Source: a virus
Taxonomy: Duplodnaviria; Caudoviricetes
Length of the DNA stretch: 64,000 nt
IMG/VR virus record: IMGVR_UViG_3300032233_002657
Span: 96,001 to 160,000 of that record
Reading direction: 5' to 3' (one strand)
Every line of letters starts with the position of its first letter. Positions within the stretch are counted from its first letter, which is position 1. The notes below the pieces were generated by a model. That model was not told where the DNA came from and searched no databases. It worked only from the letters and a program-made list of their open reading frames with translations. The position numbers and the translations under genes were made by a program. Below, one piece after another: positions 4,954 to 54,296 of this stretch.

Positions 4954-5418
4954 CTACCTAGCCCCTAGAGCTATTAGTTTTTTTATGTACCCCAGTACTC
5001 CTCTAGGATCCATAAGGGTACCGTTATCAGTGCCTTGATTGTGTTTTCTTCCAGCTGATAAGGCCTCTGCCCTAGCTAGAGAACAGTGCCTTACTCTAAA
5101 GGCTCGTTCCATGGCTTGAAGGTAAGCGGCTTGCAGCTTGATTACTTTTGCGTCACTGCTTGTTCCTGGGTTACCGGTTTCGTAAGTGGCTTGGTATAGA
5201 GGGTCCAGCTCTTCAGTCCTAGAGAATTTTCCTCTTACTGATTCATGATTAGCCGTATCGCTGCCGTCTACGTCGGCAAGCTGCCATACTCTGGGCTGCC
5301 CCTCTAGGTGTGAATTACCTATCTTTAAGCATTGCTTAGCCAGCTCAGTAAGGTTCTTTGTAAACGTGTTAGCTGGAGATGATACCTTAGACGAACCGTA
5401 GTAGTTATCTGTTGCCAT
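4954..5418 (-). CDS. Hypothetical protein (tail/baseplate module)
   Basis: 154 aa ORF, start overlaps the stop of the sigma gene. Confidence 0.6.
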   Translation of the reverse strand: MATDNYYGSSKVSSPANTFTKNLTELAKQCLKIGNSHLEGQPRVWQLADVDGSDTANHESVRGKFSRTEELDPLYQATYETGNPGTSSDAKVIKLQAAYLQAMERAFRVRHCSLARAEALSAGRKHNQGTDNGTLMDPRGVLGYIKKLIALGAR

Positions 5419-6245
5419 TATAGTAACCCTATCCTTTCTCTGCTGTCCATTTTTTTCTGTATATCAGCTCTAATCTGGCTTACCCTAGCCGGGGTAATCC
5501 TTAGCTTGTTAGCAACACCTATGTTATCCAATATCCTTTTACCATTCATCCCAAATGTGTGTTCCATTATTAATTTTGCTCGGTCGTCAAGGCCGTCGTG
5601 TACGAACATTCGCCACGCCTCTCCTTGAGGAGTGTTAGGTATAACTGAAGATGGGTCCGATACATCTTCGTTTTCAGTGCCCGTAAACGACATCGAGGCA
5701 GTGCCTTCAGATAGACCTGGCTTATAACTTCTAACCTTCTCAATTCGCTTAGCGGAAAGGCCCGTGTAATCGGCTAGCTCATTATCATTGGGTTCGCGAC
5801 CTAAATTTTCCGTAAGCTCATTGAAAGAATTATTAACAAAATTACCGTCCATCCTAACTCTTTCAGGAACGTTAAGAACCTGATTAGACTTGGACGATGC
5901 CCGCTTCAAACCCTGCATGTGCCACATCATGTGCGTCTTTAGCTTGGACTTAGCAGGGTCGTAGCTCTTTAAGCCTTCTAAGGCCATGCGCTTAGCTTGA
6001 AGTCTGATACTGGGAGAGACGTCTTGACCTACGTAGCTTTTAATCGCAGTGTCTATTATAGGTGATATTTTTCCTATAATCATGTCGTTTTGATTGGGGG
6101 TCTGATTGCCAGACCATAATGAGTATGGCTCTAAGTATTCTTGTTCTAAGTTACCATTAGATATGGGCTTACCCTTGGCTTCGGGCTTATCCGAATCAAG
6201 AGAGAACATGCTGGGTACTTTTCCAAATTGTTTTTTATCGTTCAT
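5418..6245 (-). CDS. Sigma-70 family RNA polymerase sigma factor
   Basis: Region 2 (YDPAKSKLKTHMMWHMQ...VLNVPER), region 3 (LGREPNDNELADYTGLSAKRI), region 4 HTH (LDDRAKLIMEHTFG...VANKLRITPARVSQI). Confidence 0.85.
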   Translation of the reverse strand: MNDKKQFGKVPSMFSLDSDKPEAKGKPISNGNLEQEYLEPYSLWSGNQTPNQNDMIIGKISPIIDTAIKSYVGQDVSPSIRLQAKRMALEGLKSYDPAKSKLKTHMMWHMQGLKRASSKSNQVLNVPERVRMDGNFVNNSFNELTENLGREPNDNELADYTGLSAKRIEKVRSYKPGLSEGTASMSFTGTENEDVSDPSSVIPNTPQGEAWRMFVHDGLDDRAKLIMEHTFGMNGKRILDNIGVANKLRITPARVSQIRADIQKKMDSRERIGLL

Positions 6246-35787: not shown

Positions 35788-38199
35788 TTACACGTTGTTA
35801 TCTTCAAGGCTTATGCCTTCATCGGGATACGAGTCTATAGTCTTCTGCTTCAGGAACAATAGTAGATCGCCCATCTGCTCAAACGAGTTTCTAAGATTAT
35901 CTTCAAGTTCTGGCATATCCTTCTTACCGTACCGGTCTTCAAACTTATCTTTGTGCCAGTAGAAGCTAAACAAAATCCTACCAATCTTATCTAGGCCGCC
36001 CATGAGGTCTCCTAGATGTCTATCGACCATAGTGTCGTCTCTAACTGACTTTATAAGAGTGCCTATCATAGAAGTATCAAATACTTCTTTTTGTCCTGAC
36101 TGAGCGGCGTTGTATCCTATAGCCATGGTCTTAGGATCAGGTAGCCTAGGGTCGTACAAAGCGGTATTAGACTGAAGCGACGTCCCTGCCATTGCAGGTA
36201 TAGCCTGCTGCATAGGGTAAGAAGACTGCACGCTTCCTAAAAGAGTTTGTTCCATACCCGTTGGCTGAGTTGGAAATGCTGGAGCCGTGGTGCCGCCCAT
36301 CATGCTTGGGTCCATAGGGTCGCCAGGAGCAGCTGACTTTATTAAGTCTCCTGCGTCTTCTTTTACTGGTTTGTGAATTATGTAGTTAGCAACCTTAAGG
36401 GTCTTAGCTTCGTCTAATATAACTCTAGCCTGCTTTTCTCTAAGAGCTACGTCCCTAACCAAGTGTATAAGCGCGTTCTGTGGGTCTAGCACTCTGCCGT
36501 TAATGCTAACTTCAGAGCCAGTGTGCCTTACGTTTAATGAGGCCGTCTTCTGATAAATAGCATGCTGAAGATCGTTAAGATCGCCTGGGACTATAGCCCC
36601 ATCCCCGCAGCAGCTGTCTCCGCTCAGCTTTACAGCTTTAAAATTGCCAGGAATGTAAAGGTCACCGTTAATAGACTTAATTCTCACACCTGGCTTGTCA
36701 GTTACATATAAATTCTGCCCTGCACCTATGTGAGACATGCCCCCGCTAAAATCACTATAAGCTCCTTTAGCCACGGCAGGAAGGTACTTTGGTCTAGCTT
36801 GAGAAGCGTAATCAAGGTATCGCACCTTGTAGCCACTAGTGCCGTCAGAATCCCCCATTACCTTTAACACTTCAAACGGAACGCTGGCGTCGCCGGTTTC
36901 ACTAACAGCTAAATAGACATTCCCCTTTGATAAAGACGAAAGGCTAGAAAGCTCTTCAAAAAACTTGGCAAAGCTTTGGCCGCTATTTTTACTTTCAGGA
37001 GCGTCTTGGCCCCCATCTCTTGGCGGACGTGTAAACAAGTTACCTGGGTGACTGTTAATCCAGTGCTTCTCACCTGTGTAGTTAACTACAGTGGCGAAGT
37101 CATGGCGCCCTGAAGGGCCATGAGGCATAAGGAAAATTATGGTCTTAAGCATGGAGAAAGGACAAACTAAAAGATCATAGACACCGGTAGAAGCAGGATT
37201 CTCTATTGAGGTAGGTTCCTGCACTTTGTAAGCGATAGCCGTGTCGTCTTTTGTCCTAGCGTCTCTAAATATAACCCCGTCTGTAAGGAGTTTTTCCTTA
37301 TCAGCTTTTGGAGAATCCATAACTCCATCTGAAGAAGCGTTGAAACTTCTGATCATGATGGTAAGGGCTTTCTTTTCCTGAGGCTTAATGTATACGTCTT
37401 CTTCAGACAGAATACCAGGCTCTGGAATGCTTTTAAGCTTATCGACAGCATTCTTTATAAAGTCAGACCCGTAAACTTTTTCAATAGCTTCTGCCATCTT
37501 TGGAAACTGCTGGCATGTACCTATAAGAGCTTTAACTAATTCTTTAAACGCTTGCTTACCATGAGCTGCTTCTTTAGTAAGAAAAGATTTAAGAGTAAGG
37601 GCGTTATTAAACTTTGGATCGTTGGAAGGATTGGTGCAAGCAAACTTAGCAAAGGATCTTACTCCTTCGCGCATCTCGTCTTTATCTACTGCTGATGCAA
37701 ACTTAGCAGGTGGTCGGCTGAAAGCTTGCAGGTCAGGTGAAAGAAATCCTAGTCTAGCCATGTTCTGATCTGTCTTCTTTCCTAAGCTAGCAGGCTTACG
37801 TCGTAGAATGTAGTTAAGCCAGTTTTCTTTAAGTGGCACAAACTGATCTTGGTCTTTAAGGTAGAGCAGCTCATGGCCTTTAAGATCGCCATTAATAAAA
37901 AATACAGGGGCGTAAAGCCATTGAGGCCCAACCTTAAATCCAAACAAGCCAACAGCTTTGGTGTTGTCTTCGTTGCGTTCCATGAGCTCGAAGCCTACCT
38001 CATAGTCGAGTAGGCCTGGGGCTTTGTCTTTTAGATAGGCATGCGCAAGGTTGCTAAATGCCTGTTCAAACTGAACATCGTTTCCAGCCCCTCCAAGCTC
38101 GGCTTTTTTTACGAAGCCTGCAATAGGTGGGAGAGGGTTCAGAAAACTATTACTTTTGTTGCTCATGTTCTTAACCTTCCAGGGCTTAGAAAATAACAT
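35788..38199 (-). CDS. Large hypothetical virion-associated protein
   Basis: 803 aa; K-x-A motifs (VKKAE, TKEAA, QKTAS, IKSAA) and PMDPSMMGG; the start may instead be at 38166. Confidence 0.6.
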   Translation of the reverse strand: MLFSKPWKVKNMSNKSNSFLNPLPPIAGFVKKAELGGAGNDVQFEQAFSNLAHAYLKDKAPGLLDYEVGFELMERNEDNTKAVGLFGFKVGPQWLYAPVFFINGDLKGHELLYLKDQDQFVPLKENWLNYILRRKPASLGKKTDQNMARLGFLSPDLQAFSRPPAKFASAVDKDEMREGVRSFAKFACTNPSNDPKFNNALTLKSFLTKEAAHGKQAFKELVKALIGTCQQFPKMAEAIEKVYGSDFIKNAVDKLKSIPEPGILSEEDVYIKPQEKKALTIMIRSFNASSDGVMDSPKADKEKLLTDGVIFRDARTKDDTAIAYKVQEPTSIENPASTGVYDLLVCPFSMLKTIIFLMPHGPSGRHDFATVVNYTGEKHWINSHPGNLFTRPPRDGGQDAPESKNSGQSFAKFFEELSSLSSLSKGNVYLAVSETGDASVPFEVLKVMGDSDGTSGYKVRYLDYASQARPKYLPAVAKGAYSDFSGGMSHIGAGQNLYVTDKPGVRIKSINGDLYIPGNFKAVKLSGDSCCGDGAIVPGDLNDLQHAIYQKTASLNVRHTGSEVSINGRVLDPQNALIHLVRDVALREKQARVILDEAKTLKVANYIIHKPVKEDAGDLIKSAAPGDPMDPSMMGGTTAPAFPTQPTGMEQTLLGSVQSSYPMQQAIPAMAGTSLQSNTALYDPRLPDPKTMAIGYNAAQSGQKEVFDTSMIGTLIKSVRDDTMVDRHLGDLMGGLDKIGRILFSFYWHKDKFEDRYGKKDMPELEDNLRNSFEQMGDLLLFLKQKTIDSYPDEGISLEDNNV

Positions 38200-38623: not shown

Positions 38624-40546
38624 TTAAAGTACACCGCCATTTGATTCGTCCGGAGAAAGAATATTATTTTTAGCCTGGTTTGTATCATAACCTTTTACTG
38701 GACCTTTTCTACCGAATTCAACCGACTTAGCCAAAGAAGGTACATACGAAGTTCCTTGCTCGTCGCTTATGGCTCCCCTATGCACGGCTTGAAGGGTAGA
38801 CTTCCTCAAATTACTTCCTAGCATTCGAGTCATCCAGTCAGGGTCATGCTGCAGGTTTTCTAGACCTCTGACAAAGTGTGCGTCAAACGGAGCTGGGTTT
38901 TTATGGGTAGTAATCTGGTTAATACCAAACTCTTCAAAATCTTTTACCATCGAAGGCTTTATTTTAGTACCTATAGTGTAATGCAAGGAGGGCTTCTCTA
39001 AGTATTGACCAACAGCTGATTTAGGGGTCATGACCTTATGTCCTTCTCGAGGTTCCCAAGAGTTCTCTATAGCGTCGTAAGGAATGACGTCGTCTGGGGC
39101 GTATTGGTTATACTCCTCATTCATCTTTATGTGGTTTATAAGACCCTTAGACATTATCTCTATATTTCGCCTATTGCCTGACATGCCTGAGTCTTTCATA
39201 GCTGTTTTAAAGGCTGTAACGAATTGTCGCCTTCCTTCGCCTATACCTTTAAACTTTGTAAGCTGTGCTGGGTTTGCTATTCCGTCAGACAGCATGTCTC
39301 CTGCCTCTACGTTGTCATGCAGTTTCACAGTTAGGCCTACCTGAGGATTAACGTAATGGTCTATGCCGTCAATTCCTATAAACATGCCGCCGGTTGGAGC
39401 AGGCTTGATACTGGTAACCTTTCCATCTCTTTGAGCATGAGTAGCCCAATATGGAGATTGCTTAGGGGATTGCACTAACTGGTTTAGGTGCTTAAAGCCA
39501 GACACAGCCCCTGCGGCTCCGGCTACTCCGCCTGTGTGCTTGGAACTAAGCTGACCTTGGGATATAGGTTCAGATAAAGCCTGCATGGCGGCTATGCCTA
39601 CTGAATCACCTGAAGGAGCTAGGCCGCCTCTTTCTCTTACGCCTAGGTCTTTAGAGTAGACCCCACCATCCGCAGCCCCAAAAGCTACAGGGCTTCTTAC
39701 TACTATTCTCTTTAGTCCTTTAGCCTTGAGATCTTTAAGAACTCTAGGAGACAGCAAAGTATTCCTGCTGTAGCCCCCAGCGGACATAGCAAGAAGGGCT
39801 CCCTCGTTATCATCGTCATTAAGGTCTACAGGCATACCCCTATTTTCGCCACGAGTAGGGTCAGGATCATCATCCCCTACTACTATCATTCTGTGCCCTA
39901 CCTGATTCAACTGCTTAGAAAAGAACCCGGCGTCCATGGTAGAAAACTTAGTATCTGAAACGCCTTTTCTAGCACCGAATGTGCCTGCAAAGTATTCAGC
40001 TGGGTTTAGCCCTTTAGAGTATGAATTGAATACAGGTATAGGAATCGGGTTATCGTGATGATCAGTGTATAGAAGATCTCCGCCTCTTAAGCTTTTTAAA
40101 TTCATAGCCTTACCCCTAGACCCAGACTGTATCTGACGGGCTAGCTGGTTGTTCTCTCTTATGGAGTCGTCAAATATGCCTTTCTCCATTGGCTTCTGTG
40201 CGGCATTTAGAAGATCTATCATCTTAGTATTTTTAGCGCCTTCGTCGTCTCTGTTATCAGCCATTATTTTAGCAATGGCTATTCTTAGCTCTGCTTTGCT
40301 GTCTATGGAGAACTTTGATTCTCTTAGATCTTTTAGACCAAATGAAAACCCACCGCTTGAGTAGGAAACGTCTCTGCCTACGTCGTACAGCTTCTTAGAT
40401 ATGTCTCTATATTTTTCTGGATGTTTTTCAGCTATGAGCTGCATTAGCGCAGTTGAAGCCTTAGAATCAAGCGATCTTGAATAGTCCTTCAGCTCTTCTG
40501 GAAGGGCATCATTAACCATGATCTGGCCCACAGTGGTCCTAAGCAT
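38624..40546 (-). CDS. rpoC: Phage RNA polymerase beta' subunit, C-terminal half
   Basis: RTTVGQ, GSRG, bridge helix (GLNPAEYFAGTFGARKGVSDTKFSTMDAGFFSKQL), trigger loop (VGIAAMQALSEPISQGQLSSKHTGG). Confidence 0.9.
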   Translation of the reverse strand: MLRTTVGQIMVNDALPEELKDYSRSLDSKASTALMQLIAEKHPEKYRDISKKLYDVGRDVSYSSGGFSFGLKDLRESKFSIDSKAELRIAIAKIMADNRDDEGAKNTKMIDLLNAAQKPMEKGIFDDSIRENNQLARQIQSGSRGKAMNLKSLRGGDLLYTDHHDNPIPIPVFNSYSKGLNPAEYFAGTFGARKGVSDTKFSTMDAGFFSKQLNQVGHRMIVVGDDDPDPTRGENRGMPVDLNDDDNEGALLAMSAGGYSRNTLLSPRVLKDLKAKGLKRIVVRSPVAFGAADGGVYSKDLGVRERGGLAPSGDSVGIAAMQALSEPISQGQLSSKHTGGVAGAAGAVSGFKHLNQLVQSPKQSPYWATHAQRDGKVTSIKPAPTGGMFIGIDGIDHYVNPQVGLTVKLHDNVEAGDMLSDGIANPAQLTKFKGIGEGRRQFVTAFKTAMKDSGMSGNRRNIEIMSKGLINHIKMNEEYNQYAPDDVIPYDAIENSWEPREGHKVMTPKSAVGQYLEKPSLHYTIGTKIKPSMVKDFEEFGINQITTHKNPAPFDAHFVRGLENLQHDPDWMTRMLGSNLRKSTLQAVHRGAISDEQGTSYVPSLAKSVEFGRKGPVKGYDTNQAKNNILSPDESNGGVL

Positions 40547-40548
40547 GA

Positions 40549-40767
40549 TTACCCTCCAAGTGTTATTTTCTTTATTCCCGGTGGTGTTATTCCGTTTTGC
40601 TCTAAAGTATCTGCAAAACTGGAGTCGGCGGCCGTAACGCAGGTTATTACAGAATCTGAATTATCTAGGAACAAGGCTATAGGGTTATTTAAGTTGTCGT
40701 AAATAACTAGCCTTGTTGCCTTTGCCGGTGGAGTCTTATCAAAAAAATTATGATAATCAAGAATCAT
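40549..40767 (-). CDS. Small hypothetical protein
   Basis: Tightly packed between its neighbours. Confidence 0.55.
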   Translation of the reverse strand: MILDYHNFFDKTPPAKATRLVIYDNLNNPIALFLDNSDSVITCVTAADSSFADTLEQNGITPPGIKKITLGG

Positions 40768-41371
40768 GTCTATTGGTCTTTCTCAAAAGGTCCATTATAC
40801 CAGCTGCTTTTTCAGCAATCTCATGTTTAGAAAAACCTGCTGTCTTTGGGGCTGGTGCTGGTGCTCCAGCGGAAGGATCTCCGCCTTGAGGCTGAGGTTT
40901 ACCTTGTGAAGAGTCATCTTTATTCTGGCTTGGGGCTTCGTCAAGAATGTCATGAGGAAGGTTTATGCCTAGGGAAGAATATAGATGGGTTAACAACTTT
41001 TGAATACGGCGCATAAACATTTCAGTGTTCTGCCCGTTATCTGATTTCTTTCCAGCTCCTTTGTTTCCCTTTACTTCAGCTAGAGCTGTCTGCAGTTCAG
41101 ACTTAACTACAGCTCTAATTTGTTCAGTAGGGTCTTCTGGAGGAGGCGCGCCCCCCATCATAGAGGGATCCATAGGTGGTGCTCCCCCCATCATAGAAGG
41201 GTCCATAGGAGGCTGACCGCCCATCATTGATGGGTCCATAGGTGGTGCGCCTGGAGGAGCACCTCCAGCCATAGCCGGGTCCATAGGAGGTTGGCCGCCG
41301 CCCTCAGGGGGCATGAAGGCCGACTTGATGCTCAATTGAGCCTGCTTTAATAGATACTTATTAATTGCCAT
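40757..41371 (-). CDS. Pro/Met/Gly-rich protein with K-x-A motifs
   Basis: LKQAQ, IKSAF, PKTAG, EKAAG; tandem GGAPPMDPSMM. Confidence 0.65.
   Translation of the reverse strand: MAINKYLLKQAQLSIKSAFMPPEGGGQPPMDPAMAGGAPPGAPPMDPSMMGGQPPMDPSMMGGAPPMDPSMMGGAPPPEDPTEQIRAVVKSELQTALAEVKGNKGAGKKSDNGQNTEMFMRRIQKLLTHLYSSLGINLPHDILDEAPSQNKDDSSQGKPQPQGGDPSAGAPAPAPKTAGFSKHEIAEKAAGIMDLLRKTNRHDS
41142..41302 (-). repeat. Coding tandem repeat, ~33-bp units encoding GG(A/Q)PPMDPSMM
   Basis: About 4 imperfect units visible in DNA and protein. Confidence 0.75.
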
Positions 41372-41423
41372 GATAACTCCTAGACACTATGGGTTGCTTA
41401 CATTAAGGCCGCAGTAGAGTACG

Positions 41424-42053
41424 TTACTCGTAGGGCGCTACTTTATTTGGAGTTTTAGGTTTTGCTTTTTTCCCGCTGATACCTTGTATTCTGTTCTTCT
41501 CTGCATCAGGGTCTGTAAGATCTGAACCTGCAAATGAAGGTTTAGTAGGTTTATCGCCTTTTCTAGAAATTTGATTGGTAGTTGGCTTAGGTACTAAATC
41601 ATTAACTATACTTCCGTCTTCGTCTTTTGTAGTTCCAGCTCCTAAACCTATTTCACCGCCACTATTAACTTTGTCCTGCATGGCATTCATAAAGCTTCCA
41701 GCGTATGGGCTTACAGGAGCTTTAGGACCGAGAAGACGTTTTAAATACTCATTTCCAGTTCCTGCTAGATCCACTCCAAAGTGTTGAGCACCGGCGCCAC
41801 CTAAGCCGCCTACAGCGCCACCACCTACAGCACCAGATAAGAGACGAGATATAACACCTTGCTCGCTGTCGCCAAATAAAGCATTGCCAAGCCCGCCTAC
41901 TAAGGCACCGCCGCCAGCCCCAAGGAGCCCGGCCTGAAGCCTAGGGTCCAAGCCGTTGTAAGCGTCCATGTACCCGCTTGCCTTATACATGCTTCCAGTT
42001 TTGTTACCCAAGTACTGAGCTAACTCTATAGCTTTATTGTTTTGGTACTGCAT
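41424..42053 (-). CDS. Glycine-zipper protein
   Basis: GLLGAGGGALVGGLG and GAVGGGAVGGLGGAG. Confidence 0.65.
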   Translation of the reverse strand: MQYQNNKAIELAQYLGNKTGSMYKASGYMDAYNGLDPRLQAGLLGAGGGALVGGLGNALFGDSEQGVISRLLSGAVGGGAVGGLGGAGAQHFGVDLAGTGNEYLKRLLGPKAPVSPYAGSFMNAMQDKVNSGGEIGLGAGTTKDEDGSIVNDLVPKPTTNQISRKGDKPTKPSFAGSDLTDPDAEKNRIQGISGKKAKPKTPNKVAPYE

Positions 42054-42145
42054 CTTGCTCTCCCATGTAAAATAAAATACTTATATAAGACTATAACTTA
42101 CTACTTACGCCCTTAGCTACCTCATTATTTAAAAACAGTGTGTAA

Positions 42146-45100
42146 TCAAGGCTTAGCGGGAGCCGAAGCCGCTTGGTTTGCCGGGGTAGGTTTGTAAAAA
42201 CTATCTACGCCTCTAAGGCCTCCATAAGCCCCCAGGCCCATGCCCGTTACCGAACCTAAATCCCTGATAAGCTGATACCAGTCTTTATTTTTTTTAAGGC
42301 TATCCTTGGAAACAGTAGACTTTAATATCTTATCCGTGAGCCAATCGCCTCCTAGCATACCGGCAAACCCGCCGCCTACTAAGCCAGCCCCGTGCTGCAT
42401 AGATTTAATTCCAGTATACTTCAAGGCATCTTTGAGGTCCTCGTTTCCTTCTTCTGTAGCAAAAGGAACTCTAAATTGCTGTAGGATCTTATGAGCTAAT
42501 GATTTAGTCTCGTCATTTACGGTTGTGGTTCTAAGTATCGGCCGGCCTTTTTCATCAAGCTTAGTTTCAGTAATAAGCGGCTGAGCATTTCTTAGAGCTT
42601 CGGTTTCTTTTGGGCCCATAGCAGTAGATTCTGGATGCGACTGGCTAAGTTCATCAAGAGTAGGTTTACGTGTTACCTGCGCCCCAGACACCGAAATCTT
42701 TTTGTCGGTGTTTAAGAATGGGGCTTTAAAAGCTTCAGTAAACGACGCGACAGGGTTAGCGTTAACGGCTAGTTGGGCTTGAGTGTGAGGCATATACGCC
42801 CACCTTATTCCTGAAGAAACGCCATCTTGAGCCAGCGACGTAATCCCTGGCATGTTTACAGCTCCGGTTCCTAGGATAGCAGCGTCTGTAAGAGGGCTTG
42901 GGCCATACATGTGTTTTTGCACAGCTACAGGCTGTGCTTTTCTTAAAGCATCATACTTTTTGTACTTTGTAGCAATTGAAGGAAGCCCGGTCGTGTATGA
43001 CAGTAGGGTATTCCCCGCAGTTTGTGAAAGCACTCTATCCCAGTCAGTCTGCTGTTTGCCTGTATTATAACCTCTAGATGGAGAGACAGGGTCAAAGCCT
43101 TCTTCGCCGGCTACGGGAAACGCTTGTTGCTTAGGGACTACTCCTCCAAGATACTGGGCCCCCGTTAATCCTGTACCAAAAGCAATGTGCTTTGCAAGTG
43201 ACTTGCCCCCATTGTACCAGGTAGAACCTAGTAAAAGTGACTTAGCCGCATCTACAAATCCTGCTGCTTTAACCGCGGTAGAAGGCCTGAGTGCATGGAC
43301 CGCTGCTGCGACACCGGCGGCGCCTCCGCCTATTTCTCCTACTAGCTTTAACCACCACCTTCTATCTTCTTGCCTTCTTCTATCATCATACTCATCTCCC
43401 TCTTCGTCGGGAAAAATGTAATTTGCTATTCCGCCCATAGCCCTATTGCCTAAATAAGAACCGGCTAGTCCCCCGGTTACATGCGGTATTAAAGCTTTTC
43501 CTAAATCCTTTAAGCTAGGGTCTGCAACTTCGTCTCCGCCTAGTGACTTTATAACATGGTTTGCAGCAGGCACTATGTATTCTTTATGTGCTTTGGCGGC
43601 ATATTGAGCAGCGTTTGCATTCGCAGTGTCTATCATTTTTACAAGAGATTTATTGCCGTAGAAATCCCCTAAAGATTTAAAAGGAGTTTGAATCCACTTG
43701 TCTACTTGTTCTTTTTGTCTGGGGTCTCTAGCTCTAGCCGCAAATTCTGAAACGTCTCCTTGAGTCTTGCTTACGTACTCACCGTAGGCCGGACCAATCC
43801 CCGAACCAAATATTCCATTCTTGTATTCCGGAGCCATTATGCCATGTCTAATTATTCCAAAACCCCCTAAGCCTGACCCAAGTGATCTTACTGGAGCATT
43901 CCAGACCGCGGTACCGGCTCTAGGAGTGGCCATAACCGCTCCCCATAGCGCAGAGTTAGCCTTAGATTTTTCAAGGGTATGCTGGGGTACATTCGGGTAC
44001 ACTTTCTTTTGGTAAGCGTCTTCAAGATTATATCCAGCAGTTGCGCCAAGGGCCATCCGCCCAGCCGTAGTAACAGAAGGTAAATAGGGTTTTATAACAT
44101 CTAAGAGACCTGATGATTTTTCAATCCCGTTATTACTTTTAATTTTATTGCTACCGACTTCTTTTAATATATTAAGGAACTGCTCATTCAGCTTTTGCTT
44201 ACGATCAGCGGCGTTTATTAAATAGTCATCCGTCGCTGGTAATGGGTCAGCTTTTATACCTACGTTCCTTAAAAAGGATCTTAATCTACCTGGAGCCGTT
44301 CGGGCTATGTATCTCTCTATTAAAACTTTACGATCTTCAGGGGCTAAGTGCTCATGGCTATCAAACCTAAGCGCCCTGCCTTCGCTTTGGCTGCTTCTTG
44401 CTGTGTTCCAGTGTGGGTCTAGAAGTTGAACTAACTTGGTGCCTTTAAAAGATAACCCTTCGGTACCGGACGGTCCGAGAAGAGCAACTTTAAGTTTATC
44501 TGTGTTGTAGTCGTCTACTAACTTCTTTCTTTCCTTGTCAGATAAGTTGCCTGTGAACGAAGCTGCGGGTATACCAGCTTTATTAAGCGCATCTTGATAG
44601 GGGGATAAACCAGCGTCTATAAAATTAGAGAACACTAAGGCCTTGCCTTGTGGGTCTTTTTCAAAGAGTGATTTTAGGTTGCCAAGAGCTGCGGTAAGTT
44701 TGGGAGACTGCTCAAACGCCTTTGAAACATCTTTATTGCCGCGCATGAACGGAAGAGTAGATAGACCGACCTGCCTTAGACCAGTCATAAAGCTGGTCAT
44801 CTTTGTAATTTCATCTTGAGTCAGCGGATAGTTCATCTTTAGCTTCCACCTGAGCACTGTAGGAAGTTGCCCCATCATGTAGCTATTAAGGTCGGTCTGG
44901 TCCCTGCCCATCTCTACTACAACGTCTTTTCTATTTATCTCAGCCTTAGGAGCCAGCGGGGCAAAGTAATCAACCTTATCCTTTAATTTACTTTTTAGCT
45001 CGTCCTGATTTATAATAGCTGGCTCTTCCGCTGAGGAATCAAATAAGGCTTTATACCAAGGCTTATCAGGAATTTCATCTACGTATCTTTTACTAAACTC

Positions 45101-45634
45101 TTCAGGAGTTACGCTATCTCCAGTAAGAATGTTATAAGGAACCGAGAAGTCGCTCGGGTCGTTTACTACTGGGGTTCCTGTAAGAAGTACGACCTGCCTA
45201 GCTTTACGGGCAGCTTCCATAAGGTTCTTAGTCTGGGAAGATTTTGGGTTTCTAAACCTATGAGCTTCATCTACTAATATGGATTGCGGGTTTGCGATCT
45301 CAGTTCCGTTACCTACGGCAGTGTGACTCATAACGCTACTAGGAGTTGCCGTTGCAGGATCTATAAACCTTTCTTGTTCTTTTCTAAGGTTGTTACGCAG
45401 GGCTGCGGGCACTACGGCTGTGTAAGGTATCTTAGTGGCGTCAGCAGCGGCTAACCCGCTAAGGGTCTTGCCTGATCCTAGGCTGTGATAAAGAAGCAGC
45501 CTCGCTTTGTTCTGTGTGTCTAACTGCTTTTGGACTTTGTCCACTACTGCCGTTTGATGCGGCTGAAGCGTTATACCGGGCTGTAATTCAGCCTGCTTCA
45601 ATACTTCCAACTCGTTCGATAAAGGAGTGCTCAT
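42146..45634 (-). CDS. SNF2-family (SF2) helicase fused to a long glycine-zipper C-terminal region
   Basis: HSLGSGKT, VDEAH, LTGTP, GTEGLSF, WNTARSSQSEGRALR in roughly the first 500 aa; multiple GxxxG hydrophobic segments after that. Confidence 0.85.
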   Translation of the reverse strand: MSTPLSNELEVLKQAELQPGITLQPHQTAVVDKVQKQLDTQNKARLLLYHSLGSGKTLSGLAAADATKIPYTAVVPAALRNNLRKEQERFIDPATATPSSVMSHTAVGNGTEIANPQSILVDEAHRFRNPKSSQTKNLMEAARKARQVVLLTGTPVVNDPSDFSVPYNILTGDSVTPEEFSKRYVDEIPDKPWYKALFDSSAEEPAIINQDELKSKLKDKVDYFAPLAPKAEINRKDVVVEMGRDQTDLNSYMMGQLPTVLRWKLKMNYPLTQDEITKMTSFMTGLRQVGLSTLPFMRGNKDVSKAFEQSPKLTAALGNLKSLFEKDPQGKALVFSNFIDAGLSPYQDALNKAGIPAASFTGNLSDKERKKLVDDYNTDKLKVALLGPSGTEGLSFKGTKLVQLLDPHWNTARSSQSEGRALRFDSHEHLAPEDRKVLIERYIARTAPGRLRSFLRNVGIKADPLPATDDYLINAADRKQKLNEQFLNILKEVGSNKIKSNNGIEKSSGLLDVIKPYLPSVTTAGRMALGATAGYNLEDAYQKKVYPNVPQHTLEKSKANSALWGAVMATPRAGTAVWNAPVRSLGSGLGGFGIIRHGIMAPEYKNGIFGSGIGPAYGEYVSKTQGDVSEFAARARDPRQKEQVDKWIQTPFKSLGDFYGNKSLVKMIDTANANAAQYAAKAHKEYIVPAANHVIKSLGGDEVADPSLKDLGKALIPHVTGGLAGSYLGNRAMGGIANYIFPDEEGDEYDDRRRQEDRRWWLKLVGEIGGGAAGVAAAVHALRPSTAVKAAGFVDAAKSLLLGSTWYNGGKSLAKHIAFGTGLTGAQYLGGVVPKQQAFPVAGEEGFDPVSPSRGYNTGKQQTDWDRVLSQTAGNTLLSYTTGLPSIATKYKKYDALRKAQPVAVQKHMYGPSPLTDAAILGTGAVNMPGITSLAQDGVSSGIRWAYMPHTQAQLAVNANPVASFTEAFKAPFLNTDKKISVSGAQVTRKPTLDELSQSHPESTAMGPKETEALRNAQPLITETKLDEKGRPILRTTTVNDETKSLAHKILQQFRVPFATEEGNEDLKDALKYTGIKSMQHGAGLVGGGFAGMLGGDWLTDKILKSTVSKDSLKKNKDWYQLIRDLGSVTGMGLGAYGGLRGVDSFYKPTPANQAASAPAKP

Positions 45635-45637
45635 GGG

Positions 45638-48600
45638 TTACCCTACTATTACGACTTTATCGTTTGCGGATATTTCGCCTGCCTTGTAGGCACGTACGGC
45701 GTCCATCTTTGTTTTGAAGTATTTTTCAGGTCGCTTAGACGCTTCAGAGGTAGCCGTGTACAGCCCACCCTGGTACTCGTTCATAGGAAGCTGATGAACT
45801 TTGAAGTTTTTTACGGCAAGAAGATTACGGCTGGGTAGCATCTTTTCTAAAGCATCTTTAACAGACTCATCAGTTGTGGGCACATGGTAGTTCATGGCGT
45901 CGCCATCAAAGTCTGCTCCGAACCCTTTAACTATAATAGGAGGAACTTGAAGAGTACTTCCTTTAACAAGCTGAGGCCTAAACGCCATAACCCCGTAACG
46001 GTGAAGCACTGGAGCTCTTGTTATGATTACAGGTCGAGCATCCATTTCTGCAAGCATTGCATCCATGGCCATCTTGTCTTTACTTTCTATAAGATCGGCT
46101 GCTTTAAACCGATCCACTCCTCGTCGAATAAGCCTTCTCATGATAAAGGGTTTATACACAGCCCAAGCTCTGTCTTCCGGAAGGCCAACTTGATCCATGT
46201 CTAAGTCTGGGTTTGGAGTAATAGCCGCTCGGCCAACCATGTCCACGTTAGAGGCTAACAGCTTTCTTTGAAGCACTCCAAACTTAGGGTTATCTCCAAA
46301 TACTTGTTTTAATATTCCTTTTACGTTCTTTTGTTCTAGCTTAGGGTTACTAGTATCGGCCATGCCGGTTACGCCCTTGAAAGAGTCGTATACAGCCAGT
46401 CTATGATCTGACAAATCTGTAAAATGGTTGGATGCTTCCTTCATCTCAGAGTTAGAATCTATGAGCTCCTTATAAAGGTAGTTAGCATCTCCTACCATAG
46501 GAAGGCCGCTGCTCTGCATTATGCTGACTGGCCTAAACAAAGGAGGAAGCACTGGCACTTTATCAAGAACCCAATCAGAGGGGTGCATTCCCAGATCCTT
46601 AGACGTTTTAAGATACCCTAGCTTTCTAACAGCTGTGTCTCTGTAAGACTTTTTACCTGACGCTATCTGCGCTCTAGCTTTTAGTATCTCCTGATCGACG
46701 TTCATCTTTTTAAGGGCCCCAGATATAGCTCCTGGCCCTTTAATTCCATTTAGCTCTTCTCTGCCCGCTAGCACATCCCTAAACTTATTCTCTGTTAATC
46801 CTAATACTCTGCGTATGGGCTCTTCCATAACTGGATTAGGCATAGGTTCATGCAGCTTTATGTGGCTCCACATAGTGCCGCCGTGGCCACCAGTTAAAGT
46901 AGGGTCAAACAGGCCCCCGCCTACAGGCTTCATGCTGCCAGACCAATCAACTGTATCTGATCTTGTAATCTCTCTAGTACCAGACAAAGAATCGACGTCT
47001 GCGCTGGTCATAGCCATAAGCTGCGTCTTAGAACCTTTACGCACAGGGTTGATTCCGGCTGCCTGAAGCTGGGACATGAATTTACGATAGGTCAAAGGAA
47101 CTCTTGGTATGGGCAGAGGCTTACCAGTCATGAACGCAGCCCAGTAGTCTTCGTTTTTCTGACCTCGAATAGCTCCTGCATCTCTTAATACTTCGTGGGC
47201 TCCGTGAGAAAGAAGCGCGTTGACGTCCATAAGGGCCATACGCTTTGATCCTGTCTCTCCACCTTTAGCAGGAGTTTCTTCAGCTGTGTACCCGCTGGAT
47301 ACTCCTCTACCTTGGCCTTTTGATTCAGAGGTGTGATGCAGCTTCATAAAAAATCTGTTACCAGTGAATATACCTTTTATCTTTCTCCCAGTGTCGGGGT
47401 CTTCTATATCTTCCATATCGCTTAGATTATGCTTCTTTAGTTCGTTGATCGCATACTCTGTAAGATCCTCTATGTTATCAAAGTCTTTTACGGCATACCT
47501 TTTACCCGTCTTCTCGGATATCTTGCCTAAAGCAGCTTCCACCATTTGGCCAGGGTTTGTACGAGTGATGATACCTAAGGGATTGAGCAGAACCTCAAAA
47601 GGTCTGCCGTCCGCTCCTTTAGGCATTTTGTCGTCTGGGACTACGGTGGATATTACACCTTTGTCGCCGTATCGTCCTGACAGCTTATCCCCTTCCTTCA
47701 TAGGGACAAGACTTTTTACACTTACTGCATAACCTTTCTTAGTAGCAGTAACATCGGTGACTATTCCCTCATTCTCGTGATCCCAAGTTACGCTGGCATC
47801 GTTAAAGCCAGTCCTAGATCTACCCACTTGTTGATTGTGCGCTCTAGATAATATGTTGGCTTGGAATATTAAAGGGTCGCCGGTTCGTACGACGGTGCCT
47901 GGCTTAACTACTCCATTGTCATCCATGTTGCCTACATGTTCTTTGGTGTAGTTAGAAGGGAACAACGTAAGAAAAGCTCTTTTGCCTTGCTTAGTGTCTG
48001 GGCCAAACTCAGTTTCATGCTGGTACATATGCTCTGAAGTAAGCCTTTTTGCTGCCCCTTCTGATATGACTATGGCATCTTCAAAGTTGAAGCCTTTATA
48101 AGGTATGTAGGCAGTTCGTAAGTTAGTACCTAAAGCAGTAGTACCTTTATCATCGGTGTAGTTTGACTTAGCCAGAAGGTCGCCTTTGCCGACTACGTCC
48201 CCAACAGACACTGAAGGCGTGTTGTGAAGAAACGTCTTTCTGTTAAACGGAAGATTGTTATAAAGCTCGGTCTTATGAAGCTGGCCATCTTCTCCGCGTA
48301 TGTGAATCTCGTCCCCGTCAACCTTTATGACTTGGCCCGCGTTCTGAGATCTAACTGCGCCCATATGAGAGCCATACTCTTCTTCGTATGACTTATCTTC
48401 TTCATCGGGCATACCAGATTGGACGTAAGGCGACTGAGGGTTCTGCAAGGGCAGGGCCTGAGTAAGCATTCTCGCGCCCATCATTACGCGCTGGCCTTTA
48501 GTGGCGCTTTTTAAAGGTATAAGATTAGCCAATTGATTAAACGAGCTTTCCATTCTGGGTAGCTCATAGGCTACTTCGTCCCTGTTGACGTATTTTATTT

Positions 48601-50092
48601 TACCGCCTGAAAGAGCCGCTATTTTAATGTTATTAGGGTCTCTTAGCTGATTAGGGAATGCTACTATCTCCTTGGTCATTTCTTCTGGAGTTCTCCACAC
48701 ATCCTTATTAGTGGAGACGTCTCTAAAGCTGCCGTACACCTTACCATCTAAACCTTTACGGGAGTTGATGGCGATGCGGCTGTCCACGCCTACCTTTAAT
48801 GACTCTGGAGTAAGCAGAGGGTCAATAAACCCAAAGTGAGAAGGCTGCACGTTTCTAGCTTCTTCAGGAACTGACTGCAGGGATGGTATACCGCCTTCAC
48901 CTAGTCTGGTTACTCTTGTAATTTGATTTAGTAAATCAGCTGGATTTACTTCCTCAAGAGGCTGCCCCATTCCGCTGGTAGAGATAGCTCCGTTTACATG
49001 GGAGTCTAGAAACCCAGGGGAGAACGAGCTTAAATTTTGCTTGAAGCTAGCCTTCCAAAGCAGAGGTCGCATAACTCTGTGAGAGGACCTAACTCTTTCA
49101 GAGAATAAATCTTCAGGCCCTATCATCGATTGATAGGCCATGGCATCTCTGTCGTCTGGGTCTGACTCTCTTCTGTGAACAGCTAATATCTTTTTAGTTG
49201 CAGCTAGAATTGAGTCGGCTGAGACATTCTTATACGGCTGCCCAAGAGTTTTAAAATTAACGTCGGGGTCCATCTCCATTTTGGCTATGGCGTCTAATAC
49301 AGACTGCTTTCTGCTTTCTGGAGTAACTATGTCGCCTGGTTTAGACTTACCGATCTTACTAAATATCTTTTCCATGTGCTGCGGGTCATCAGTGGAGGCA
49401 TTAGAGTTATATATGTCATTACCCCAAGCTTCCCGTAGCTGCTTATCAGACGCCCCTAAAGCTTTTAGAAGAGGAGTTATGGGTACAGACGACTGTCCAA
49501 ACTTTATAGAGAATACGCCCTTTTCCGGATCCAGCGCATATTTATGGGATGCTCCTTTTCCCGGCATAATGTTAGCGTGGCTTTCAACTTCGCCGCTGTG
49601 CGTTATTCTTGTAAAGACTCCAGGCTTAAGCCTCATTTGATTGGCTAGAGTGTATTCTGTGCCGTTAAGAATGAAAGTACCTCTATCAGTGAGATAGGGT
49701 ATTTTAGCCAAGGTTGTTCGTTTGCTTTCTATGATATCGCCGGTAACACTGTCTGTGAGGTTAAGCGTGCCTTTAAGGCTTCTGTTTAGCGTCTGGCCTT
49801 TAAGTATAGCTTCCTTCTGCGCTTTTATAGATTTGGTTTCTTCGTTGTCGCCCCACCCTACATCTGTAACACTAAGCGTGTGCCTTTGATTTACAATAGG
49901 TTCAAATTTAGAGGCAGTGGCTAGAACCCCGCCAAATATAGCGGATCTAGTAGCTTTCATGTCGTCAAACTTACGCATGGTTGGGTCAGCCATGGGCGCA
50001 AGCGGCATGGGCGCAAGCTTTGGCGGCGAGCTCAGCGCAGGAGTTGAAAGAACTCCTAAAGAGCTATCGTTATCTGGTAGAACTCCAGCCAT
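45638..50092 (-). CDS. rpoBC: Phage RNA polymerase: beta subunit fused to the N-terminal half of beta'
   Basis: Beta motifs GTFILNGTEY, HFGFIDPLLTPES, GFNFEDAIVISE, GDKLSGRYGDKGVIS, LLNPLG; then beta' motifs VPVLPPLFRP, RAPVLHR and catalytic GADFDGD. Confidence 0.92.
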   Translation of the reverse strand: MAGVLPDNDSSLGVLSTPALSSPPKLAPMPLAPMADPTMRKFDDMKATRSAIFGGVLATASKFEPIVNQRHTLSVTDVGWGDNEETKSIKAQKEAILKGQTLNRSLKGTLNLTDSVTGDIIESKRTTLAKIPYLTDRGTFILNGTEYTLANQMRLKPGVFTRITHSGEVESHANIMPGKGASHKYALDPEKGVFSIKFGQSSVPITPLLKALGASDKQLREAWGNDIYNSNASTDDPQHMEKIFSKIGKSKPGDIVTPESRKQSVLDAIAKMEMDPDVNFKTLGQPYKNVSADSILAATKKILAVHRRESDPDDRDAMAYQSMIGPEDLFSERVRSSHRVMRPLLWKASFKQNLSSFSPGFLDSHVNGAISTSGMGQPLEEVNPADLLNQITRVTRLGEGGIPSLQSVPEEARNVQPSHFGFIDPLLTPESLKVGVDSRIAINSRKGLDGKVYGSFRDVSTNKDVWRTPEEMTKEIVAFPNQLRDPNNIKIAALSGGKIKYVNRDEVAYELPRMESSFNQLANLIPLKSATKGQRVMMGARMLTQALPLQNPQSPYVQSGMPDEEDKSYEEEYGSHMGAVRSQNAGQVIKVDGDEIHIRGEDGQLHKTELYNNLPFNRKTFLHNTPSVSVGDVVGKGDLLAKSNYTDDKGTTALGTNLRTAYIPYKGFNFEDAIVISEGAAKRLTSEHMYQHETEFGPDTKQGKRAFLTLFPSNYTKEHVGNMDDNGVVKPGTVVRTGDPLIFQANILSRAHNQQVGRSRTGFNDASVTWDHENEGIVTDVTATKKGYAVSVKSLVPMKEGDKLSGRYGDKGVISTVVPDDKMPKGADGRPFEVLLNPLGIITRTNPGQMVEAALGKISEKTGKRYAVKDFDNIEDLTEYAINELKKHNLSDMEDIEDPDTGRKIKGIFTGNRFFMKLHHTSESKGQGRGVSSGYTAEETPAKGGETGSKRMALMDVNALLSHGAHEVLRDAGAIRGQKNEDYWAAFMTGKPLPIPRVPLTYRKFMSQLQAAGINPVRKGSKTQLMAMTSADVDSLSGTREITRSDTVDWSGSMKPVGGGLFDPTLTGGHGGTMWSHIKLHEPMPNPVMEEPIRRVLGLTENKFRDVLAGREELNGIKGPGAISGALKKMNVDQEILKARAQIASGKKSYRDTAVRKLGYLKTSKDLGMHPSDWVLDKVPVLPPLFRPVSIMQSSGLPMVGDANYLYKELIDSNSEMKEASNHFTDLSDHRLAVYDSFKGVTGMADTSNPKLEQKNVKGILKQVFGDNPKFGVLQRKLLASNVDMVGRAAITPNPDLDMDQVGLPEDRAWAVYKPFIMRRLIRRGVDRFKAADLIESKDKMAMDAMLAEMDARPVIITRAPVLHRYGVMAFRPQLVKGSTLQVPPIIVKGFGADFDGDAMNYHVPTTDESVKDALEKMLPSRNLLAVKNFKVHQLPMNEYQGGLYTATSEASKRPEKYFKTKMDAVRAYKAGEISANDKVVIVG
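48711..48726. repeat. Dispersed palindrome, copy 6 (GTGGAGACGTCTCTAA, 14/16)
   Basis: Read directly; inside the RNAP gene. Confidence 0.75.
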
Positions 50093-52894: not shown

Positions 52895-54190
52895 TTAGTG
52901 CCCGAACAGGCCCGGCACTATGGTTTTTATAGCCCCAGCCATAATCCCAGCGTTCTGTAATGTACGCTGCGCCTGAGGGGTAAGCCCAGCCAAAGCTCCA
53001 AGGACTTTACCGCCAATGGTTGCCTGTGCATAGCCCGCTCCCATTCCTATTCCTATTTTAGCTATGTCCATGGGGGTTATGAATCCTGAGCTGCCGTTGA
53101 GAGTATTAGCTGCCCCTACGATACCCATTGTGGCGGCTTGCATGCTTGAAGAAGAGAACGGGTCGCCCATGACTACTCTGTTAAAGGCATCCACAGGAAT
53201 AGGGGCTAAGTAAAGAGAGTCACTGTTGCCAAAGAAGTCGGCTGCCTTCTTCATCTCGTCAGAAATCTGTGGCTGTATATCTGACAAAGAGTCAGAGGCT
53301 TGTTTTAAATTAGAGTTACCAAATAAGACGTTTGGTCTTATAAAAGAGTTAAATGAGGTTCTGTGCCTATCTGGGTTAGATGGGTCGTCCCAATTAGACA
53401 TGCCTACGCCGCCTAGCGCAGCCCCAGGCAGAGCTCCTAACGCTCCTCCAAGTACAGCTAGCCTTTTTCGAAGCTTCCCCTTTTCAAAGACCTCAGGGGC
53501 AAACGTTTCAGCCAAAGCACCTGCTCCGTACCCTAGACCCGCAGTTAAAGCTCCACCGGCTATCATAGATGCCAACGGAGTGGCTCCGCCTATGGCGTCG
53601 GTAAAACCAGATGGCTTTATCGCAAATGCCTGAGCCATCGGGCCAGCTACACTTGATATGGTTGTAGCAGACTTCACTAGTATCCAAGGGCGGTTTAAGT
53701 TAGGGCGCCCTATCTTATGATGAATTCCATTTTTCTCTAAAACTGTGGAGACGTCTCCACTCGGAATGGCTCCATAATCGTCCACTAAAACCTTGTCGTT
53801 TAATGGGCTTACCCAAGCTCGCATATTTGGAAGAAGCGCCCTTGCAACCTTTTCAAAAATAGATTTTGCAGCTGATGTGTAAGTGTTGACAAGCTCAGGC
53901 ACATAGCTCCAGGATAAATCTGATGAAATTTTATTTAAGGCTTCTTGCCTCTTTATCGTATAAGGGATAATATCTCTTGGAGCGTGGACTTTGAATGATG
54001 TAGGCACGTGCGTAACTCCCACAAATTTCTTGTTAAGATCGGAATCTATGAGGAAATCTTCAGGTCTGCTCATAAACAGATTCCTTAATATTTTGTTCTT
54101 CTCATGATAATTTTTACCGTCCGACATGGCTTTTGCTTGCAACAGCAAATGAAGGTCGGCTTTGGGGTTGCGTTCTACCTGTGGCTGCAT
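52895..54190 (-). CDS. K-x-A / glycine-zipper membrane-type protein
   Basis: GGAGG RBS before the ATG at 54190; VKSAT, LKQAS, KKAAD; several GxxxG hydrophobic segments. Confidence 0.65.
   Translation of the reverse strand: MQPQVERNPKADLHLLLQAKAMSDGKNYHEKNKILRNLFMSRPEDFLIDSDLNKKFVGVTHVPTSFKVHAPRDIIPYTIKRQEALNKISSDLSWSYVPELVNTYTSAAKSIFEKVARALLPNMRAWVSPLNDKVLVDDYGAIPSGDVSTVLEKNGIHHKIGRPNLNRPWILVKSATTISSVAGPMAQAFAIKPSGFTDAIGGATPLASMIAGGALTAGLGYGAGALAETFAPEVFEKGKLRKRLAVLGGALGALPGAALGGVGMSNWDDPSNPDRHRTSFNSFIRPNVLFGNSNLKQASDSLSDIQPQISDEMKKAADFFGNSDSLYLAPIPVDAFNRVVMGDPFSSSSMQAATMGIVGAANTLNGSSGFITPMDIAKIGIGMGAGYAQATIGGKVLGALAGLTPQAQRTLQNAGIMAGAIKTIVPGLFGH
53745..53760. repeat. Dispersed palindrome, copy 7 (perfect)
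   Basis: Read directly. Confidence 0.9.
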
Positions 54191-54296
54191 TACAAAATCC
54201 TCCACCCCGATAGTAACAACTATTAGCTCTTCAAGCCATAGTTGATACTGTGTATGCAGGAATTACTTAACTTAGGTGAAATAGGAGATTCAGTAA

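Follow-up and report, generated by a model that had tools for sequence, protein, structure and literature searches.

A two-chain RNA polymerase with beta fused to part of beta' in an uncultured tailed phage and its relatives

Introduction

How can an RNA polymerase align residue by residue with the bacterial enzyme and yet consist of two chains only, with no alpha, omega or zinc? The question is raised by two genes of an uncultured tailed phage, located in a 64-kb stretch of DNA (bases 96001-160000 of the 181,489-bp, 88% complete IMG/VR record IMGVR_UViG_3300032233_002657; hereafter the window). One of them encodes the whole of beta fused to the N-terminal part of beta', written here beta::beta'(N), and the other encodes the remainder of beta', written beta'(C). 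The polymerase of this phage is one member of a large overlooked phage family, and its core is most probably a virion-delivered, sigma-dependent, alpha-free and zinc-free two-chain RNA polymerase.

Three kinds of phage multisubunit polymerase have been published, namely the highly diverged, many-piece and sigma-less enzymes of phiKZ/AR9-type jumbo phages, the distant single-chain enzymes of the crAss/YonO kind, and the two-gene enzymes called mReC. Reviews up to 2026 describe polymerase-encoding phages without a sigma factor and sigma-encoding phages without a polymerase (PMC7598289; PMC13282480), and in reviews of jumbo-phage polymerases the enzymes are split, never fused, sigma-less and doubled (PMC7598289; PMC7824862; PMC13282480). 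The fused-and-split family is an exception to this mutual exclusivity of sigma and polymerase. While phage multisubunit RNA polymerases as such were known before, the fused-and-split bacterial-type architecture is new: our literature search found no description of a beta::beta'(N) fusion with a free beta'(C), nor of a phage polymerase with its own sigma factor.

Results

The initial annotation of the window, made from the sequence alone, had read a single open reading frame (ORF) from beta through the beta C-terminus into the beta' N-terminus, and both Pfam and phmmer searches against PDB sequences bear this out. The Pfam families Rpb2_3 and Rpb2_6 of beta and Rpb1_1 and Rpb1_2 of beta' are all found within one 1484-aa chain, and the joint presence of PF00562 (E 7e-51) and PF00623 (E 5.5e-21) agrees with the claim that both double-psi barrels reside in one chain. 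In the phmmer search residues ~55-1040 correspond to bacterial beta and residues ~1092-1481 to beta' ~151-561, the E-values of these matches being as low as 3e-75. The junction itself was placed by residue-level alignment of the phage chains with rpoB and rpoC of Salmonella and S. aureus, whose sequences came from contigs of the phage collection. Residues 999-1019, which make up the C-terminal helix of beta and its last strand GINPVR, are directly continuous with the beta' start QLMAMTS (residue 1024), within a span that contains the position near 47025-47050 suggested originally. The same alignment shows that the fused chain is without the ~20 N-terminal residues of bacterial beta'. The chain consists of a complete beta followed in frame by ~464 residues from the front of beta'. 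The chain terminates 86 aa past its catalytic motif GADFDGD, where about 85 aa had been estimated. Several records of the phage collection (OR846602, OR844998, OR849902, AFYI01000006, AGRM01000005 and others) are in fact host chromosomal rpoB-rpoC contigs, from Salmonella and also from putative Staphylococcus, Listeria and Enterococcus 'phage' clones; they contaminate the collection and do not represent polymerases of phages.

A structure model of residues 861-1484 was poor overall (predicted local distance difference test, pLDDT, 66; template modelling score, TM, 0.3; root-mean-square deviation 27) and confident at ~1030-1190, and it was relied on for local secondary structure only. In this model a strand pair is predicted at the junction, with well-ordered structure after it, the clamp-helix hairpin, to which sigma region 2 binds, can be seen, and RpoC1 of cyanobacteria and plastids gives the best structural matches. 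At the other end of the chain, residues 1-47 (window 49950-50092, minus strand) open with a short conserved start motif (Met, Ala/Pro, Gly/Ser, Val/Ile, Leu), followed before the conserved core by a variable Pro/Ala-rich stretch of 30-60 aa with K-L-A at residues 25-27. This N-terminal segment may be a targeting or propeptide segment.

The rest of beta' lies 5.1 kb away as a separate gene, in line with the earlier placement of the bridge helix and trigger loop in a gene of their own 5 kb off. Its product matches Rpb1_5 (PF04998), and residues 2-486 align to beta' 577-1090 of 8i23_D among the PDB sequences. The AlphaFold2 model of this chain (pLDDT 76.6, Foldseek TM about 0.6 to bacterial beta') has a helix at 192-217 where the beta' alignment expects the bridge helix, and in the trigger-loop region two helices (316-338 and 346-358) around a low-confidence loop (339-344). 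With only the first 110 residues of beta'(C) as query, a PDB search gave no matches, and the split was placed by profile search instead: profile position 4 of beta'(C) corresponds to residue 572 of E. coli beta', and at the cut the phage lacks a variable stretch of about 20 residues that bacteria have. In the same search residues 4-12 of RpoC2, the second part of the cyanobacterial and plastid beta', fell at profile positions 19-23. The cyanobacterial split lies in the same inter-module segment, about 15-20 positions later and past TTVG, a near but not identical boundary, in agreement with the initial annotation, which put that cut just after the TT.GR motif. Ralstonia phage RP13 (L013), with a split beta' of 517 + 486 aa, is cut ~40 residues earlier, which also fits the remark that phiKZ-type polymerases are split differently. 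Thus three lineages, the present family, cyanobacteria and RP13, have cut the same inter-module segment at different points.

The arrangement is strictly conserved. All 120 best homologues of the fused chain (52-99% identity) carry PF00562 and PF00623 in ~1470-1490 aa with an uninterrupted junction, and PF04998 was found in none of them (0/120); most of the longer homologues contain intein families. A stop or frameshift at the junction had been named as what would overturn the fusion. None was found: the ORF is free of stops, and in the best 80 of 270 IMG/VR relatives the junction was matched in one unbroken stretch (80/80). An alignment of 28 sequences was likewise gap-free and highly conserved there. 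Searched exhaustively with HMMER, the 640-aa chain gave ~1015 clusters (50% identity) at E<=1e-30, and in the best 150 beta'(C) relatives, where match coordinates are given, the match starts at residue ~1 of the protein. The same layout is present in cultured phages, namely Salmonella phage Arash (OQ632216; gp206 with 1525 aa and gp216 with 606 aa) as well as Vibrio phages D69, D148 and D181, in which the split column and the deletion of the beta' zinc ribbon are identical to those of the window. The proviso that the architecture might prove identical to a characterised phage clade is therefore answered in part, as the layout recurs in Arash, the three Vibrio phages and hundreds of metagenomic phages, none of whose polymerases has been characterised biochemically. 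In a tree of beta'(N) all fused sequences formed one group (support 100/99), separate from the two bacteria and the two other phages included; with only 20 rows, the tree serves to check consistency and does not amount to a deep phylogeny.

A free form of beta'(N) within the clade was considered and rejected. The starts of the 120 shorter proteins fall in clusters that agree with the insertion sites of relatives L011 and L012, and those with their start right at the junction (P0300, P0320) are situated at contig ends. Being gene pieces or contig-end cuts, such proteins give no evidence for an unfused form. In L010, L011 and L012 the polymerase genes are insertion hot spots with inserts of ~1-1.3 kb, of which L012 has as many as six in its beta part and another two in beta'(C), and several of the insertions in polymerase genes are inteins with LAGLIDADG and intein-splicing Pfam families (proteins P0023, P0027, P0032, P0039, P0041, P0042 and P0063). 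The polymerase genes of the window are uninterrupted. Most beta'(C) relatives (145 of 150; P0124-P0273) exceed 800 aa, with C-terminal tails that are low in complexity, rich in Gly/Ala/Pro/Gln and up to ~1900 aa long, although the extra length is in part due to inteins; the tail is absent from beta'(C) of the window and of several complete relatives. One such tail contains a helicase (P0249) and another DUF4269 and DUF5661 (P0160).

The link to the virion comes from Arash. In its purified virions gp206, the fused chain, had the highest spectral count of all proteins, with 3516 spectra and 100% coverage, and gp216, the sigma factor gp10, the helicase gp217 and gp218 were detected as well (PMC10585845). 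The window holds homologues of gp206, gp216, gp10 and gp217, and weakly of gp218, and its polymerase genes are located in the head/structural module in synteny with virion proteins. A SNF2-family ATPase is encoded directly downstream of the fused gene, and its ATPase part, the first 480 residues, is 33% identical to gp217.

Cysteine and zinc are missing from this enzyme. The two polymerase chains and the helicase have no Cys in 3286 residues, against 1.3% genome-wide, and among the relatives of the fused chain that lack inteins 98 of 108 are likewise without Cys. The beta' zinc ribbon is deleted in the window, in Arash, in Vibrio phage D69 and in relative L009, whereas it is kept in the unfused or split beta' of Rhizobium phage RHph_Y65 (L014) and of RP13. 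The RHph_Y65 beta', whole and 1127 aa long, has 16 Cys. With no Cys in either chain and the ribbon deleted, neither of the four-Cys zinc sites of bacterial beta' can exist. Of the two Arash sigmas, the virion protein gp10 has no Cys and the other, gp196, has 3. Three further large proteins of the window are also without Cys, all on the minus strand: a 544-aa Baseplate_J protein (2813-4447), a 1575-aa protein (9175-13902) and a 436-aa protein (52895-54205).

The window also encodes a 275-aa sigma-70-family factor, a homologue of gp10, which is probably the specificity subunit of the phage polymerase. Its family profile aligns to sigma-70 factors across regions 2-4, while Pfam searches of all six frames for sigma regions 2 and 4 gave no match. 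A gp10-type sigma was found as a single copy in all ten genomes with a fused polymerase (10/10), eight of them at least 90% complete. The gene is located in the baseplate/tail module, beside the Baseplate_J protein and a VgrG-like protein. As had been stated for the window, no alpha or omega is recognisable, and neither PF01000 nor PF01192 has a match in the whole 181-kb record; PF01000 was also without a match in five 100%-complete relatives. Each of these five has exactly one beta'(C) gene, and in Arash and D69 every polymerase query had one matching place. The features are collected in Table 1.

Table 1. Positions of the polymerase genes, their parts and associated genes in the window
Feature	Position	Strand	Details
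Sigma-70-family factor	5418..6245	-	275 aa, 0 Cys; homologue of Arash virion sigma gp10
803-aa protein	35788..38199	-	downstream of beta'(C); syntenic in relatives; weak similarity to Arash virion gp218
beta'(C) gene	38624..40546	-	640 aa, 0 Cys; starts 2 residues ahead of the TTVG motif
Trigger loop with two flanking helices	39473..39601	-	residues ~316-358 of beta'(C)
Bridge helix	39896..39973	-	residues ~192-217 of beta'(C); AlphaFold2 model helix and beta' alignment
Two small conserved ORFs	40549..41371	-	72 and 204 aa; next to beta'(C) on its upstream side; synteny kept in relatives
SNF2-family ATPase	42146..45634	-	1162 aa, 0 Cys; directly downstream of the fused gene; residues 1-480 ATPase
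Fused chain gene beta::beta'(N)	45638..50092	-	1484 aa, 0 Cys; ORF, Pfam and PDB alignments
Catalytic Mg-binding motif GADFDGD	45899..45919	-	residues 1392-1398; canonical preceding Asn replaced by Gly
Deleted beta' zinc ribbon site	46865..46897	-	~32 aa (four Cys in bacteria) replaced by a short Gly-rich loop
Fusion junction	47003..47056	-	residues ~1013-1030; beta C-terminus to beta' N-terminus without linker
beta part, compact bacterial-type	47033..50092	-	residues 1 to ~1020, after a variable Pro/Ala-rich N-terminal ~45 aa

In bacteria the Asn of NADFDGD contacts the ribose of the substrate. The replacement of this Asn by Gly at residue 1392 (window 45917-45919, minus strand) is shared with much of the family, the position being Gly in 73, Asn in 34 and Ala in 10 of 121 sequences; the motif of Arash and D69 is AADYDGD.

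The C-terminal 680 aa of the helicase (window 42146-44194, minus strand) form a tail with 11% Gly, 11% Ala and repeated glycine-zipper-like hydrophobic stretches, for which no homologue was detectable. It may be a membrane-inserting or virion-anchoring module. Kinship with the long beta'(C) tails of relatives was considered, and BLAST gave no match; a beta'(C)-helicase fusion occurs in 1 of 150 beta'(C) relatives. The 803-aa protein was matched in L006, L008, L010 and L012, and in L001 at E 5e-6. Searches of the 72- and 204-aa ORFs against Pfam and PHROG returned only a sub-threshold Mucin-like Pfam hit. When the Arash portal, the sigma gp196 and several structural proteins were compared with this genome by tblastn, no match was found. 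Upstream of the polymerase block, on the opposite strand (54297-56558, plus), a ribonucleotide reductase is encoded, with an ATP-cone, a B12-dependent insertion domain and a barrel.

Discussion

Taken together with the Arash proteome, the architecture of the two chains suggests how such an enzyme could function. The first chain passes from the whole of beta into the N-terminal module of beta', which comprises a clamp core without the zinc ribbon, the clamp helices and the double-psi barrel that holds the Mg site, and the second supplies the C-terminal module with the bridge helix, trigger loop and cleft/jaw. Besides them the phage encodes one sigma-70-family factor and one SNF2 ATPase, both of which accompany the polymerase genes throughout the family. 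The covalent link between beta and beta' would replace the missing alpha as assembly platform. The two chains, the sigma factor and the SNF2 ATPase would be packed into the head and delivered with the DNA, and their packaging is probable because they are homologous to Arash virion proteins. Once delivered, the enzyme would start transcription independently of the host enzyme, and as it is the only set encoded it probably also serves the later stages. We infer that sigma acts on the phage core, and that the absence of cysteine and zinc could be an adaptation that lets the proteins pass out through the tail and refold. A more far-reaching scenario is less likely than not: the core, sigma and SNF2 ATPase could form a head-borne starter kit that passes the tail unfolded, reassembles without zinc, disulfides or alpha and transcribes the whole genome, in a family that is independent of the host enzyme.

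Several observations weigh against a virion-delivered, sigma-dependent two-chain enzyme. Virion proteomics exist for Arash alone, the chains of which are 31% and 24% identical to those of the window, and its authors allow that abundant enzymes could be carried over in purified particles (PMC10585845). A second polymerase set may be present in this phage itself, since the record is 88% complete. The data are compatible with either the phage core or the host core as the partner of sigma. Low cysteine is not specific to ejected proteins, as the Baseplate_J protein has none and the structural module is Cys-poor overall; the trait thus fits extracellular or ejected proteins generally and is no proof of ejection, and a literature search on cysteine-free ejected proteins found nothing relevant. 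The poor model of the junction fragment is a further point against the enzyme as proposed.

The dependence on Arash leaves room for a polymerase that acts solely within the infected cell, where it is made, and is not packaged in this phage, the position of its genes among virion genes reflecting timing. A single polymerase set would have to work intracellularly in any case. Nevertheless, we regard a purely intracellular enzyme as unlikely, given that in Arash the fused chain tops the virion spectral counts at full coverage with sigma and helicase alongside (PMC10585845), that the genes stand in the head/structural module in synteny with virion proteins, and that the lack of Cys is common to the Arash virion sigma and not to gp196. 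It is rather improbable, too, that sigma redirects the host polymerase while the phage core initiates without sigma, as in phiKZ and AR9. That the published jumbo-phage polymerases have no sigma homologue, and that phage sigmas are usually assigned to the host core (PMC7598289; PMC13282480), speaks for such a division. Yet each of the ten genomes with a fused polymerase has a single-copy sigma, which in Arash is packaged together with the polymerase (PMC10585845) and is Cys-free like it, and the predicted clamp-helix hairpin would offer the binding site for sigma region 2.

The fusion could also be a precursor that a head protease cuts near the junction into separate beta and beta'(N), as with phiKZ-like virion polymerase subunits. 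The Pro/Ala-rich leader with its K-L-A would agree with proteolysis, but the junction is gap-free, highly conserved and without K-x-A, and is predicted as a strand pair passing into ordered structure. Strict conservation of the fusion across ~30% sequence identity would moreover be hard to explain if the chain were cut again. We therefore find cleavage at the junction very improbable, and trimming of the N-terminal leader more plausible. The chance that the fusion is an artefact of assembly or frameshift, or a decaying gene, is practically negligible: it is shared by independent assemblies from many samples and by two groups of cultured phages, the ORF has no stops, and peptides cover the whole of Arash gp206 (PMC10585845).

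With the virion-delivered two-chain enzyme preferred, the value of the system lies in the family. It is widespread (~1000 clusters at 50% identity) and includes a cultured phage of Salmonella Typhimurium that is easy to handle. Due to this, and to the likeness to the bacterial enzyme, assembly without a platform, the role of the zinc sites and the delivery of an enzyme through the tail become directly testable questions. The window alone is a modest gain, one more family member with an unusual helicase arrangement.

Among cellular enzymes, the rpoB-rpoC genes of Helicobacter and Wolbachia join the beta C-terminus to the beta' N-terminus in one frame and keep the whole beta', alpha and omega. 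In this type of fusion the chain contains a complete beta', whereas in the window beta' is cut after the catalytic barrel. Cyanobacteria and plastids, which split beta' into RpoC1 (gamma) and RpoC2, have a free beta together with alpha, omega and the zinc sites.

Among phages, the mReC enzymes (Weinheimer and Aylward 2020, PMC7481178) resemble that of the window in belonging to uncultured phages of ~100-300 kb and in their bacterial-like, readily alignable beta and beta'. In the Supplementary Data 2 of that source beta and beta' are different proteins of ~900-1370 aa each, and its filter requires a beta' of at least 800 aa. The mReC type would accordingly be defined by separate beta and beta' proteins, each 800 aa or longer, and by NADxDGD in the latter; in the window the motif is in the chain with beta, and the other chain has 640 aa and no motif. 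Membership of the window in mReC was therefore rejected. The phiKZ/AR9-type enzymes share with the window the lack of alpha and omega and the cut of beta' between the catalytic barrel and the bridge helix, and likewise have a SNF2 helicase linked to the polymerase genes; one of their enzymes is virion-packaged, as we propose for that of the window (PMC7598289; PMC7824862). Their beta, however, is in two or three pieces, with no fusion, two paralogous sets and no sigma homologue, and membership of the window in this type was rejected on its whole beta, single set and sigma. They are also far more diverged, as the initial annotation stated and PHROG E-values agree. A viral structure library gave distant matches only, the best hit being 17% identical and of the length of the Rhizobium phage beta'.

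Closest are Arash, D69, D148 and D181, which are like the window in the fusion, the split column, the ribbon deletion, the single polymerase set, their own sigma and a nearby SNF2 helicase. The Arash paper names the proteins beta and beta' and leaves the fusion unmentioned (PMC10585845). In Arash the helicase gene follows beta'(C) and is without the long tail, whereas that of the window follows the fused gene and has the 680-aa tail; the Arash chains have few cysteines (1 and 4) and those of the window none. An analogy, not a kinship, is provided by the poxvirus virion RNA polymerase, which is packaged as a multisubunit enzyme with the SNF2-family ATPases NPH-I and VETF-s, although it is a eukaryotic-type polymerase from a different virus realm. 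NPH-I is also the best PDB sequence match of the helicase (E 3e-10), in the generic helicase C-domain only.

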